Shown in pieces: positions 27,001 through 30,000 of a stretch of DNA of 64,000 bases. Origin of the DNA: an archaeon (GTDB lineage: Archaea > Iainarchaeota > Iainarchaeia > Iainarchaeales > 0-14-0-20-34-12). Every line of letters begins with the position of its first letter. Within the stretch, counting starts at the first letter, position 1. The position numbers were made by a program. The stretch covers positions 1 through 64,000 of the forward strand of contig JBBSVU010000006.1 of NCBI GenBank assembly GCA_038046645.1, given 5' to 3'.

Positions 27001-30000
27001 TTAATTTCTGTTGTCTTTCAGCTAAAAGGCCTCTTCCAATATATTCAGATCTAAACTGTGCGGTTAACGAATCCACAATTAACAGTTTGATATTTTTCTC
27101 CTTAATTATTTGGTCTGCTTTTTCAGTAAGAATCATTTGATGATCAGCATTATATGCCTTTGCAACAAAAATATTTTTTAGTGTTTTTTCCGGTTCCAAA
27201 CCTTTTGCCTTTGCAATACTTACAATTCTTTCTGGCCTAAATGATGATTCAGAATCAATGTACAAAGTATTTCCCCCCAATCCTCCTTTATCTTTTGCTA
27301 ATTGGACCATTACTGCTAACTGGAAACACCATTGGGTTTTGCTTGAAGACATCTCACCATATACCTCAGTAATGCTTTGGGTTTCTACCCCCCCTCCAAG
27401 CAAAGTATCTAATTCATTGCTCCCTGTGCTTATCTTCCCAATTATTTCCCTTCTTTTAAGTATCTTTTCCGCGCTTTCAAAACCCATATCAAGGGCATCC
27501 CTGGCGGCTTTAATTATCTTTTCAGCGGTTTTTTCCCCTAATTCTGCCACTTCCATCAATTCCCTTGGGGAAGCCACAGCAATATTCTCCAATGATTTAT
27601 AATTAGCTTTATATAGTTTCTCGGCTGCTTGCGGTCCAACACCAGGCAAGTCAGTAATTTCCTTTATTTCTGCCATTTTTTCACCATACTATGCTTGTGC
27701 GATTTTTTATTTATAAATGCTTTGGAAGAGTAGATTTCCCCTGAACTCCGTCTTTTCTTTTTCTCTTAGGAAGAGAAAAAGAAAATATAGGCTGTCAAAA
27801 GAAAAAGAGAAAAGAAAATATGGGTTGCCGAAAGAAAAGAGAAAGAAAAAGTAGGTTACAACTAATATCAAAGGACAAAAATAAAGAAACAAAAGTCGTC
27901 CTTTGATGGCTATAAAAAGACATTATAAAAGTTTCTAGATTAATGTCTTTTTATATAAAATCCAAGGGATTTTAGTGTACATTAAAATTCATAAGAATTT
28001 TAATTGTATTAAGAGAAAGAAAACTTTGGTTGCCAAGAAAAAGAAAAGAGAATGTAAGTTGCTATTAAAAATAACTGATTTATACTTGGCCTTTGTTATG
28101 GTAGGTTAAAACTTCTTACCCCTACTCCTAATTTATCTTCAAATGTATTCTTTCTCACATTGCCTTCTAGTTCAATCTTTTTTCCTAAAATGTTGTTTGA
28201 AATTTCCTCAATAAGGTCATCGCTATTTTTTGTTTCTAATTCACTTTTAATTTTATCCGCTTCCTTCCCAATTATTGCCTCAGCGTTTTCCCTGAAAAAT
28301 GTTGTGTCAATGCTGCCTGTGCCGTCATCTACTGTTAATGAAATTATCGCGGTGGGCATCCCCTTTTGTTTGCATTCATCACATTCCCCTGTTTCCCTGT
28401 TCACTTTCTTGCTGCACTGCGGGCAGCTGTCATAAACAAGCCTTCCGCGGTTTACTGAAAGGATTGTGCCAGAAATTTTTATTCTTGAATCAGTTTCAGT
28501 TATCTCTGATATTTTTTTTTCAACAGCCGATTTTATGCCCCCAAGCTCTTCTAATTCAGGAATTTTTTCTTCTGTTTTTGGGGTTTTTAAAACTCTGGCA
28601 GAATACCCTAAATGCAATTCAATATCCTTTAATCCTTGTTTGGTATAAGCCCCCTCAATTTTAATTAAATCGCCTGCTTTTAATTTTAAAATCTCATCAA
28701 CCATATCATTCCATGCAGTAGCCCTTATTGCCTTTGTCCCGTCATTTAGCATGAAATTTATTACCCCCTTTTTTATTCCATCTTTTTCAAAATAGTTTAC
28801 AGGAAAAATATTTATTACCCGGGCTATCACATCAACATTCTGCAACCCCTCTTTTATTTCATTTAATTTCATCAGATTATTTGATTCACTTAATATGATA
28901 GTTTCATTTGTATTCTTATCAATCTGCGAGGAAAAGCCAATATTCAAAGAAGGTTTTTCATTGAACATCGAAATATAGCAATTTTTAAGCAGCAGGATGT
29001 GATTCTTCTGCACATCTTCAAGCTCTTTTACGTGGTTATGCCAGGCGGTTGCCCTGCATTCCCCGGTTTCATCTTCCACAAGCATATTGCACAACAGCCC
29101 TTTTTTCCCGTTTTTCTCAAACTTTTTTGGTGCATAAATGTGTTTTACCCGCACTAAAATTGTAACTGTTTGCATGCCCTCTTTTAACTCATTTATTTTC
29201 GACCTTACAACATTAGCTTCCAAATCAATTCCATAATCCTTTGCAACCATAAATGCTGCGCCTTCCTTGCTTAAAAGCCCAGCCATTTTTTTTTGCTTTC
29301 TGTCTATTTTATCAAGGATTTCTTCATTGCTCTTGCCTGTCTCCTTTATTATCCTTTCAAGAATGCTTTCAAAATTTGCCGCTTGCATAGTATTCAATTA
29401 TCCCTTACAAACAATTTTAACCTTATGCGAACCAGCATTATTTTATGGTTCATGAGATTAAACCGAAGATTTTTACCTTAAAATCAAACAATGAAGGATC
29501 CAATGTTTATTTAATAAAAGACAAATTAAATGTGCTTATTGATTCCTCCTTATCCAAGAATTTTGATTTGATTATTGGTCTCTTGCGCAAGTTGGATTTA
29601 GCGCCGGTTGATATTGATTTGATTCTGCACACCCACGGGCACGCAGACCACATAGGTTGCTCAGCCTTTTTCGAGAAAGCAAAGAGAGCCATGCATCCAT
29701 TCGATGCTTTCCAAGTGAATGAAAAGAAAGATGATTTTTCCTATGCCTATTTTTTCAATCAGAAAGAATATCCTGAAATAGGCAAATTTCTTTCAGATTC
29801 AGAAATAATTGATTGTGGCAGCATTAAACTAAATGTAATTTTTACGCCAGGGCATACAAAAGGCTCGGTTTGTTTTTTTGAACCAAAAAACAAAATACTT
29901 TTTTCTGGTGATACCTTGTTTTATGGGGCATATGGAAGGACAGACCTGACTTCAAGTGATGAAGCAGACATGAAATCATCTCTTGAAAAACTTTCAAATA

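Follow-up and report, generated by a model that had tools for sequence, protein, structure and literature searches.

Co-ordinated transcriptional control of DNA repair is a long-standing question in archaea, and to our knowledge Orc1-2 of the Sulfolobales is the only case that has been worked out; it is not known to raise the repair genes. In bacteria, the SOS response places a recombinase, ssb, a translesion polymerase and helicases under the LexA operator, which lies over the core promoter, and bacterial mobile elements put their own genes under the LexA operator of the host. The eukaryotic G1/S regulons (E2F, MBF/SBF) use one cis element to join MCM, RPA and polymerase with recombination and repair genes. 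Archaeal activators typically bind upstream of BRE/TATA whereas repressors bind mostly over or downstream of it; the upstream activating sites of Ptr2, TFB-RF1 and GvpE lie directly upstream of BRE/TATA, point towards the gene and occur once per promoter. According to the accessible text of PMC2175319, the Sta1 site at a Sulfolobus radA paralogue is a further archaeal example of upstream activation. Among the closest described systems is the DNA-damage-responsive element (DDRE) of the Sulfolobales (PMC6061795 and PMC5817253, as far as their available text goes), a ~20-bp promoter element near the core promoter that is common to a gene set and is bound by one known factor, Orc1-2, the proven regulator of the damage response in S. 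islandicus (PMC6061795). Its targets are pili, DNA-transfer and tfb3 genes (upsA, upsE, cedA1, tfb3).

Here we describe a DNA signal upstream of replication, recombination and repair genes that suggests an archaeal equivalent, so far undescribed, of a DNA-repair gene circuit. The signal is a 21-base box, TTCASRGGAAATCYACTCTYY, present in 24 copies in a 1.17-Mb genome (G000), three of which lie within the window, by which we mean the whole 64-kb stretch of contig C6 that was analysed (Table 1). Three exact copies compare with a chance expectation of 0.02 for the window, and none of 100 shuffles gave three. Genome-wide, 16 boxes are exact, six have one mismatch and two have two; two further sites have three mismatches and three have four. 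Scored with a position weight matrix, the 24 boxes reach 32.1–45.2 bits, a circular measure for these 24 since the matrix was trained on them, and the next sites fall to 18.2 (C6 175531), 15.7, 12.4 (nreA, C6 134968) and 7.0 bits (Cas4-like, C15 11495). The best scores in five shuffled genomes were 8.7–13.2 bits. The first-pass annotation had claimed such a box and a gap in its scores, and both are real: the copy number far exceeds the shuffle and chance expectation, and our rebuilt matrix gives nothing from roughly 18 to 32 bits. Its two additional "relaxed" sites fared unevenly, as Pfam confirms the genes as NreA and Cas4-like, whereas their scores of 12.4 and 7.0 bits lie inside the shuffle noise. 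The number of independent sites in the host genome is about 12–14 rather than 24 because ten of the 24 belong to one insertion sequence (IS) family and three host promoters share an upstream module.

Table 1. Features at the three box-bearing promoters in the window (C6 numbering; bits are matrix scores).
Feature	Position	Strand	Evidence or remark
Small-ORF/hel308: second copy of the radA-type upstream module	8089..8318	+	129/130 identical to radA copy
Small-ORF/hel308: promoter box	8319..8339	+	exact match; 44.9 bits
Small-ORF/hel308: TATA-like TTTAAATG	8347..8354	+	sequence
87-aa ORF	8389..8652	+	no Pfam family; homologue behind box in one relative (G017)
hel308-type helicase	8691..10829	+	Pfam DEAD, Helicase_dom4_arc, HHH_5
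radA, 318 aa	26720..27676	-	Pfam Rad51, E 4.6e-92
radA: TATA box TTTATAAA	27710..27717	-	33 nt before radA ATG
radA: spacer, 7 nt	27718..27724	-	position where BRE is expected
radA: promoter box TTCAGGGGAAATCTACTCTTC	27725..27745	-	exact match; 44.9 bits; kept in sister genome's radA promoter
radA: upstream module (polypyrimidine/polypurine hairpin and ~32-nt purine-rich units)	27746..28023	-	common to two other box promoters
LAGLIDADG gene: box	55813..55833	+	exact match; 42.3 bits
LAGLIDADG gene: TATA-like TTTAAATG	55843..55850	+	sequence
Free-standing LAGLIDADG endonuclease gene, 262 aa	55870..56658	+	Pfam LAGLIDADG_3, E 6.8e-11

The box holds a fixed position and orientation relative to the core promoter. 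A TTTAWA-type TATA lies 7–9 nt downstream of it at 23 of the 24 sites (the exception is at C1 77514), and across the order the core of the element starts 24–28 nt before TATA. Every box points towards a gene or the interior of an IS; behind 22 of them lies an ORF on the same strand, and the remaining two are gene-less mini-IS copies, at C1 61117-61385 and C6 211145-211482. In the radA promoter, the segment 27704–27749 to which the first-pass annotation had drawn attention is indeed the box, the 7-nt spacer and the TATA on the minus strand. The spacer, which is A-rich at the order level, lies where a BRE is expected and would presumably function as one. The putative recognition site would be ~20 bp long, asymmetric and bipartite, with a 9-bp core, CA-SS-GG-MAA, followed three to four bases later by ACYC. 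In lying directly upstream of BRE/TATA, oriented towards the gene and single at each promoter, the box resembles the sites of Ptr2, TFB-RF1, GvpE and Sta1, with the difference that those have known factors and serve one operon or a small set of genes in archaea that are in culture whereas the box marks 8–14 independent promoters per genome, order-wide.

Behind the box in the host genome are radA, mcm, herA, nurA, a small gene followed by hel308, a compact PolB-like gene and two unknown genes, together with six of the eight free-standing LAGLIDADG genes and ten copies of a TnpB IS, and the target genes are thus functionally coherent. Pfam confirmed RadA, MCM with an intein, HerA/DUF87 with an intein, NurA, the Hel308-type helicase, NreA, the Cas4-like protein, LAGLIDADG and TnpB. 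The hel308-type gene is probably co-transcribed with the 87-aa ORF, from which it is separated by a 38-nt gap, and the 87-aa protein may be PC4-like. The six-of-eight count for LAGLIDADG genes agrees with the earlier tally (those at C1 71799 and C6 121019 are boxless), as does the presence of the box at all eight TnpB copies whose 5' end is assembled. These TnpB copies represent one IS, with OrfB_IS605 and Cas12f1-like TNB domains and common left and right ends as in the IS200/IS605 type, and their sites are not independent because the copies carry the box internally (homology runs from −60 to +420). Rfam searches assigned no family to the gene-less box targets or to the radA leaders of relatives, the sole match being a sub-threshold one to RAGATH-18 (E 0.07), and RNAalifold on 12 relatives' radA leaders, which align poorly, gave no consensus structure.

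We consider it likely that one sequence-specific DNA-binding factor recognises the box directly upstream of BRE/TATA and so co-regulates replication, recombination and repair genes, and that these form an old host regulon which selfish genes have joined. The site itself, where it sits, how far it is conserved and which genes it precedes are observed; from these we infer that a protein binds the box and activates transcription, with DNA damage or replication phase as the signal. The putative factor is probably an activator, judging from the position of the box upstream of BRE/TATA, and it would help TBP/TFB to bind. The core promoters have near-consensus TATA boxes and look strong, and the need for activation is not evident from them. 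This strength when taken alone would suit a repressor operator of the SOS kind, with genes turned on when binding is lost after DNA damage, and the gene set (recombinase, ssb, dinB, helicases and the antirepressor-like Bro-N) resembles bacterial LexA regulons; yet such an operator seems unlikely, as the box never overlaps TATA or the start site and keeps to a fixed place upstream of BRE, where archaeal activators usually bind. Beyond the likeness in gene content, the bacterial SOS system belongs to another domain of life and differs in promoter type and site, the LexA operator lying over the core promoter and the box upstream of it. The joining of replication with recombination and repair genes is also seen in the E2F and MBF/SBF regulons, and no homology of site connects these with the box.

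Reading of the box by the basal machinery itself, by a TFB/TBP paralogue with an extended upstream contact so that the box marks a promoter class, is improbable: the core lies 24–28 nt upstream of TATA, past the known reach of TFB–BRE contacts. The fixed box–TATA distance speaks for such a reading, as does the radA promoter of one relative (G031), where core and TATA are nearer each other by roughly one helical turn, and a TFB paralogue drives cell-cycle transcription in Sulfolobus according to the available text of a 2026 preprint (10.64898/2026.09.06.749720).

Comparison with related genomes indicates that the element is conserved well beyond the host. The orthologues of mcm, radA, herA, nurA, the PolB-like gene and the 56-aa ORF in the sister genome (G001) are likewise preceded by boxes. 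These six promoter pairs show an identity of 0.90 for the box and 0.92 for the TATA as opposed to 0.51 in the upstream interval from −120 to −41 and 0.62 from −40 to −1; the element has thus been retained between orthologues whose promoter flanks have changed. The strict box pattern alone finds six of 41 genomes and looks patchy, whereas a degenerate pattern combined with promoter-by-promoter reading reveals a wider distribution. In sequence terms, a diverged form of the box, CACCGG[A/C]AA..ACYC, is kept order-wide and is newly reported here. Of 30 relatives, 25 have a box-like element ahead of the TATA of radA, and variants occur also in G018 and G034; three of the 30 radA promoters (G031 in part, G032 and G035) have no convincing box. 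Another form of the box, CTCGGCCA, constitutes the f3 variant. The pattern CASSGGMAA-N14-20-TTTAWAWR gave 114 matches in 28 of 41 genomes compared with 5 for the reversed control, and 268 matches in 79 of 151 genomes (control, 29) in a wider sample. Conservation extends outside the pattern: among 81 sites, G occurs at −1 in 53, A at +12 in 51, C at +13 in 59 and C at +15 in 51. The diverged box also precedes mcm, nurA, ssb, xpd, hel308, dinB and Cas4-like genes in many families.

The downstream genes bear on whether the box is primarily a mobile selfish promoter that spread to host genes by transposition, homing or gene conversion. Sixty-one first ORFs behind a box and TATA were collected from 13 other genomes, with radA sites deliberately excluded. 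Host replication and repair genes account for 28 of these (six MCM, five NurA, five PolB-like, four SSB-like, two XPD-like, two Hel308-like and one each of DinB, RadA, Cas4-like and the small 87-aa type) and mobile-type genes for 12. Outside the host class are four LAGLIDADG, three Bro-N, two DNA methylase, two PIN, one HicB and two DUF488 genes and three others; 16 of the 61 have no family, some of them being 50–60 aa long and possibly not genes. At least one pattern match, at a GatB_Yqey gene (L148), looks accidental. A selfish origin has some appeal within the host genome, where 16 of the 24 boxes belong to LAGLIDADG genes or the TnpB IS, which carries the box within itself, and in G012 and G023, where the sites found with the strict pattern are mostly endonuclease or TnpB genes. 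Moreover, promoter flanks are more alike within a genome (129/130 in G000 and 88/105 in G001) than between orthologous radA promoters (64/77), which shows promoter-to-promoter copying, and a TnpB-like gene in G023 bears the G000-type box rather than G023's own variant. Within the host, the radA upstream module is 97–100% identical to the modules at 8089–8318 and at C6 153962–154285.

We nevertheless regard a primarily selfish promoter as very improbable. The predominance of host over mobile-type genes (28 versus 12) answers the worry of the first-pass annotation that the box might first of all be a selfish-element promoter. Furthermore, in many families the box has been retained at radA, mcm, nurA, ssb and the PolB-like gene, always as the variant of the lineage concerned, which is the pattern that vertical descent of a host operator gives, and four boxed genomes (G039, G037, G028 and G007) have no detected LAGLIDADG_3 domain. 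The retention of the diverged form at radA in 25 of 30 relatives and at repair genes in many families therefore argues for an old host control site. In the favoured reading, the regulon would be host-owned, its operator would drift from lineage to lineage across the order, and the promoter module would have been acquired by free-standing LAGLIDADG endonucleases, by the TnpB IS with its gene-less mini-copies and, in relatives, by Bro-N genes. Having taken the same promoter module, these selfish and accessory genes would therefore be co-expressed with the recombination machinery on which they depend. Where Bro-N genes are present, the element precedes about 16 of 21, seven by a relaxed pattern and nine by eye, the by-eye assignments being subjective. 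As described in the accessible text of PMC2806898, ISDra2 of Deinococcus likewise ties a TnpB-bearing IS200/IS605 element to DNA damage and repair; its link runs through single-stranded DNA in genome reassembly whereas the IS here carries the regulon box before tnpB.

Several proteins were considered as the factor. A Bro-N protein was rejected, having been found in neither G000 nor G001 and in only 14 of 41 genomes, as was a 504-aa member of the regulon whose fold is like that of a family-B DNA polymerase. Bacterial WhiA is a LAGLIDADG-derived DNA-binding protein, and a protein of such derivation could read the box, which at 20–22 bp and asymmetric resembles a homing-endonuclease target; several box-driven LAGLIDADG proteins have extra HTH domains and the box stands at their own genes. 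We give this candidate only a very slight chance, as free-standing LAGLIDADG genes are multi-copy and patchy, and the four genomes named above as having no detected LAGLIDADG_3 domain (G039 is 93% and G028 96% complete) are all boxed at radA, the search there having covered this one LAGLIDADG family.

The first-pass annotation had put forward an Orc1/Cdc6 paralogue, from likeness of the box to the mini-ORB. Its regulon reading survives in so far as a promoter-linked cis element is common to replication, recombination and repair genes, and its choice of factor seems unlikely: the likeness to the mini-ORB is 9 of 13 positions and the TTC part is not kept order-wide. Such a paralogue would bind through its winged helix and AAA+ insert, like Orc1-2 in the Sulfolobales. 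The reading of ORB by Orc1 suits an asymmetric, bipartite site of ~20 bp, and the box is compatible with it on these grounds. The host has two Orc1/Cdc6 genes (C6 154398-155522 and C23 8688-9866), at least two Cdc6_C matches occur in 33 of 41 relatives, and the divergent Orc1 type was recovered by protein search in four of the five genomes that were re-searched among the eight with a single match, so that both types are found order-wide. In G000, G001 and G033, the divergent intergenic region next to the divergent orc1 contains a box. We nonetheless hold it doubtful that either paralogue is the factor. In a PDB sequence search, both are closest to the initiator (Orc1-1) class (2qby_A and 2v1u_A, 150–241 bits) and score 55–78 bits against A. 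pernix ORC2 (1w5s), which we take to represent the Orc1-2 class, and neither is thus assigned to the class of the Sulfolobales regulator. A true box within 400 nt upstream was found for one of 21 divergent-type orc1 genes (G033) and for none of 30 canonical-type genes; in G000 and G001 the box is ~440 nt off and divergent. Judged by sequence, there is no general autoregulation of orc1, the box being near orc1 in G000, G001 and G033 only.

The printed Pyrococcus 13-bp mini-ORB (available text of PMC1904270) and the box share a TTC..GGAA-type core, identical at nine of 13 bases, several relatives have CAGTGGAAAT, and the published 20-bp DDRE consensus ends in TACTC, as does the box of this genus, as far as the available text of PMC6061795 gives it. 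Against this, TTC and TACTC are genus variants rather than order-level features, and the ANTTTC hexanucleotide of the DDRE is missing from both strands of the box (PMC6061795, with the same proviso). The ORB core is TTCC plus GAA, G000 has TTCA...GAA, and the order level keeps only CA..GG.AA. Whereas ORBs cluster near orc1, often in inverted orientation, on the two sides of an AT-rich unwinding element (PMC1904270, available text), the box is single and stands at a fixed distance from TATA; neither orc1 gene of G000 has an ORB-like cluster next to it, and none was seen upstream of the 23 divergent-type orc1 genes scanned, out of 24. GC skew of C6 and C23 was uninformative for origin mapping. 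Columns of both Orc1 paralogues and of RadA were compared for covariation with box position 6 (A/C); the top mutual information looked higher for the divergent Orc1 (0.83) than for RadA (0.51), but the concatenated tree is star-like and has only one independent pair on supported branches, which leaves this difference without statistical power. Presence/absence profiling discriminates nothing because both Orc1 types and the box are near-universal. Relative to the DDRE, the box has a putative binder in place of a known one, neither Orc1 paralogue here is of the Orc1-2 class, and the genes served are radA, mcm, nurA, herA, ssb and helicases in place of the pili, DNA-transfer and tfb3 genes described in the available text of PMC6061795 and PMC5817253.

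The boldest form of the proposal is that the whole order runs a replication and repair regulon through one ~20-bp operator and has a divergent Orc1/Cdc6 paralogue dedicated to reading it, with LAGLIDADG genes, TnpB IS and Bro-N genes using the operator as a portable plug, and we put it forward tentatively, as unlikely on present evidence. If true, it would provide an initiator-derived master regulator like Sulfolobus Orc1-2, one set over the repair genes themselves. The expression of selfish genes would be timed to active homologous recombination and would still work after horizontal transfer between lineages, and gene-less IS copies would transcribe the guide-RNA end only.

With well over 100 uncultured genomes in which it marks radA, mcm, nurA/herA, ssb, xpd, hel308 and dinB, this defined operator provides a concrete bait for regulator hunting. 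By association it places unknown genes in DNA metabolism, among them those for the compact PolB-like protein and the small 87-aa protein, and it presents a clear case of homing endonucleases and TnpB wired into a host recombination programme. In annotation, orphan genes that follow a box can be predicted to act in DNA transactions or mobility. A literature search made mostly among openly accessible papers found none on the element in DPANN/Woesearchaeota. The host is a small groundwater archaeon of DPANN type that shares the box with its relatives, and the stretch 26700-28100 is carried by none of the RNA runs and by 15 DNA runs from groundwater metagenomes.

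The pattern TTCASRGGAAATCYACTCTYY, which takes in the box of the radA promoter, has three exact copies in the window, at 8319 (+), 27725 (-) and 55813 (+), where 0.02 are expected by chance; none of 100 shuffles attained three. On the minus strand the span 27704-27749 of the first-pass annotation resolves into the radA box, its spacer and the TATA box. Across the assembly of 1.17 Mb in 25 contigs there are 24 copies (16 exact, six with one mismatch and two with two mismatches), all of which score 32-45 bits with a weight matrix, though these scores are circular because the matrix was derived from the same 24 sites. 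The next score below them is 18.2 bits, which bears out the 24 strong sites with an empty score gap beneath that the first-pass annotation had reported. The following scores are 15.7, 12.4 (nreA) and 7.0 bits (Cas4-like), against a maximum of 13.2 bits in five shuffled genomes. The last two sites had been added earlier by a relaxed search; both have a TATA box at the correct spacing and Pfam confirms NreA and a Cas4-like nuclease downstream, but by score alone they lie at noise level. The box is asymmetric and bipartite, spans about 20 bp, invariably faces the gene and terminates one BRE-length ahead of TATA. A TATA-type box follows 7-9 nt past it at 23 of the 24 sites, and 22 boxes precede an ORF on the same strand, the remaining two being IS derivatives without a gene.

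Coordinates of the box, its promoter modules and associated genes (contig C6 unless stated)
Feature	Position	Strand	Remark
Box of radA promoter, TTCAGGGGAAATCTACTCTTC	27745-27725	-	sequence reading
Spacer between radA box and TATA, 7 nt		-	sequence reading
radA TATA box, TTTATAAA	27717-27710	-	sequence reading
radA ATG	27676	-	33 nt beyond TATA box
Upstream module, copy 1	8089-8318		97-100% identity among copies
Upstream module, copy 2	27746-28023		97-100% identity among copies
Upstream module, copy 3	153962-154285		97-100% identity among copies
87-aa ORF	8389-8652		immediately 5' of hel308
RPA-type gene	28096-29397	-	Rep_fac-A_C and OB folds
504-aa protein gene	74326-75840		behind box; locus L005:327-1838
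Incomplete second box, TTCAGGGGAAATG...	74239-74287		28 nt upstream of full box
IS right-end fragment	1-192		first ~190 bases of window
Mini-IS, box at C1 61175	C1 61117-61385		without tnpB
Mini-IS, box at 211201	211145-211482		without tnpB
Canonical orc1/cdc6	C23 8688-9866		Cdc6_C 68 bits
Divergent orc1/cdc6	154398-155522		375 aa; Cdc6_C 32 bits

Pfam places RadA and NurA behind the box, together with TnpB, an MCM whose gene holds a LAGLIDADG intein, an intein-bearing HerA/DUF87 ATPase and a Hel308-type helicase preceded by the 87-aa ORF. As first noted, six of the eight free-standing LAGLIDADG frames of this genome also have the box. The LAGLIDADG load is very high, with 19 matches and eight intein-bearing frames here and up to 29 matches in the related genome G027. 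The 87-aa ORF has no Pfam family and looks like a putative PC4-like protein; in the relative G017 a box likewise precedes a homologous ORF. The RPA-type gene ends a short way upstream of the radA promoter module, and no box of its own was found among the 24 sites. The 504-aa protein likewise has no Pfam family, and its homologues are all unnamed. Its structure prediction is confident (pLDDT 87.9, from an alignment of 18 sequences), and the best PDB matches of the model are archaeal family-B DNA polymerases (E ~1e-12, TM ~0.5, 10% identity). A CxCC...C cluster is invariant and no DTDS-type motif is conserved; judging from the model, this is a compact, shortened PolB-like protein. Its gene stands behind the box in at least seven genomes, and the second box that had been reported at its promoter was seen here as a partial copy.

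Among 41 related genomes the strict box pattern is present in six (22 copies in the studied genome, G000, 17 in its sister G001, 7 in G012 and one in each of three more), while the reversed control gave none. For mcm, radA, herA, nurA, the PolB-like gene and the 56-aa ORF next to orc1, the G001 orthologue has a box ahead of it too, and in these six G000/G001 promoter pairs identity is 0.90 in the box and 0.92 in TATA versus 0.51-0.62 in the upstream sequence. Read singly, 25 of 30 radA promoters of relatives hold a diverged box, CA-SS-GG-MAA then ACYC, at the same place before TATA, and of the five that had seemed to lack it, G018 and G034 proved to have further variants. A degenerate box-plus-TATA pattern yielded 114 matches in 28 of the 41 genomes (reversed control, 5) and 268 when the sample was widened to 151 genomes, of which 139 are of the same order and 12 from other orders of the class (control, 29); six of those 12 have one to three matches each. 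The sites are also conserved at positions beyond those that this pattern enforces. Two families that had seemed blank have their own versions: in G004, CTCGGCCA..CTCTC is common to the mcm and Bro-N promoters (loci L267 and L252), and in G031 a CAC(C)CGGCA core at mcm and radA (L264 and L068) lies ~10 nt, about one helical turn, nearer TATA. These forms appear to reflect operator drift specific to each lineage. The observation is real, and stronger than the first-pass annotation knew. Most relatives (L063, L066, L067, L069-L073 and others) also possess an 80-100-nt leader at radA in which GGGG...CCUCC...GGAGG blocks recur. These blocks could mask the ribosome-binding site, and the leader is absent from G000 and G001; Rfam gave no match to these leaders and RNAalifold, on a poor alignment, no structure.

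The genes behind the degenerate form bear on the earlier worry that the box is first of all a promoter of selfish elements. We took 60 of the 114 matches, from genomes with at least three matches plus one from G009 and with radA promoters excluded, and sorted by Pfam and blastp clustering whichever ORF came first behind each, with 50 aa as the minimum length (61 ORFs). Host replication and repair accounts for 28 of these (6 MCM, 5 NurA, 5 PolB-like, 4 SSB-like, 2 XPD-like, 2 Hel308-like and 1 each of DinB, RadA, Cas4-like and a homologue of the 87-aa protein), versus 12 of mobile or accessory type (4 LAGLIDADG, 3 Bro-N, 2 DNA methylases, 2 PIN, 1 HicB). Two DUF488 and three others, one of them probably a chance match, complete the assigned ORFs, and 16, several very short, have no family. 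Since host genes outnumber mobile ones and each lineage has its variant, the element is primarily one of host replication, recombination and repair. The selfish-element link is real, yet secondary, mobile genes having joined a host element. Bro-N domain genes (~280 aa; L242-L263) occur in 14 of the 41 genomes, though none was found in G000 or G001; about 16 of 21 have the element (7 by pattern, 9 by eye), an arrangement that resembles prophage antirepressors under SOS control. In bacterial SOS systems, mobile elements commonly place their own genes under the host operator. A TnpB-like gene of G023 has the G000-type box instead of that genome's own variant, which suggests that the box travels along with the element. 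That the box is the cis element of a replication, recombination and repair regulon, as first proposed, is well supported by its occurrence at such genes here, in G001 and across the order.

Not all 24 sites are independent. In an all-against-all comparison the similarity among the eight TnpB copies extends from roughly -60 to past +420 around the box, which is therefore the internal promoter of a single IS family. Both mini-IS copies, of ~290 nt, retain the two IS ends with the box promoter in between, so that the promoter would transcribe solely the right-end (guide-RNA) region. Fragments similar to the right end at the start of the window terminate several contigs. Three host promoters, those of radA, the 87-aa gene and the 56-aa ORF, have in common an upstream module of 130-300 nt made up of a polypyrimidine/polypurine hairpin and purine-rich ~32-nt units, with likeness that stops at the TATA box. 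Parts of the hairpin turn up at no fewer than 20 intergenic places. Module flanks are closer within a genome (129/130 in G000, 88/105 in G001) than between orthologues (64/77), indicating that promoter modules were copied or converted among members of the set, and the flanks evolve in concert inside each genome. The module may be a terminator/insulator or a portion of a portable promoter module. Independent sites in G000 number about 12-14.

The factor was initially proposed to be an Orc1/Cdc6 paralogue, which we consider unlikely. The canonical and divergent types both occur throughout the order. Sulfolobus Orc1-2 offers a precedent (PMC6061795), but the ANTTTC motif of the Sulfolobus element is not present in the box. 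The box core agrees at 9 of 13 positions with the Pyrococcus mini-ORB example in PMC1904270, although the TTC and TACTC likenesses are confined to genus level. The bipartite, asymmetric form would suit such a factor, and the box adjoins the divergent orc1 in G000, G001 and G033, the G000 gene lying 437 nt off and divergently transcribed relative to its box at 153941; however, neither orc1 gene generally has a box, and no ORB clusters were found beside the orc1 genes searched. Both paralogues are nearest to initiator-class structures and distant from the ORC2-type chain. A test of covariation, which had no statistical power, leaned slightly towards the divergent paralogue. In the single-contig genome G004 the divergent-type gene begins at record base 19.

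In archaea, a factor bound just upstream of BRE/TATA is usually an activator, and repressors bind on TATA or beyond it. As the box stands directly upstream of BRE/TATA, we favour with moderate confidence a candidate activator site, at which the predicted factor would bind and activate the promoter. A repressor site is possible, with TATA boxes that are near consensus speaking for it. The gene set, in which mcm, ssb and the PolB-like gene join radA, nurA/herA, xpd, hel308 and dinB, would suit a damage response just as well as a replication-phase programme. Among known systems, the box comes closest to the Orc1-2/DDRE circuit of Sulfolobales (a damage-responsive promoter element bound by Orc1-2), bacterial SOS regulons, archaeal activator sites of single operons and eukaryotic G1/S regulons; by the features tested, the box system belongs to none of them. 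A literature search, with most subscription journals outside its reach, found no description of the element. MCM, RadA, Orc1/Cdc6 and the TATA promoters mark the organism as an archaeon. Groundwater metagenomes contain DNA of the studied genome.
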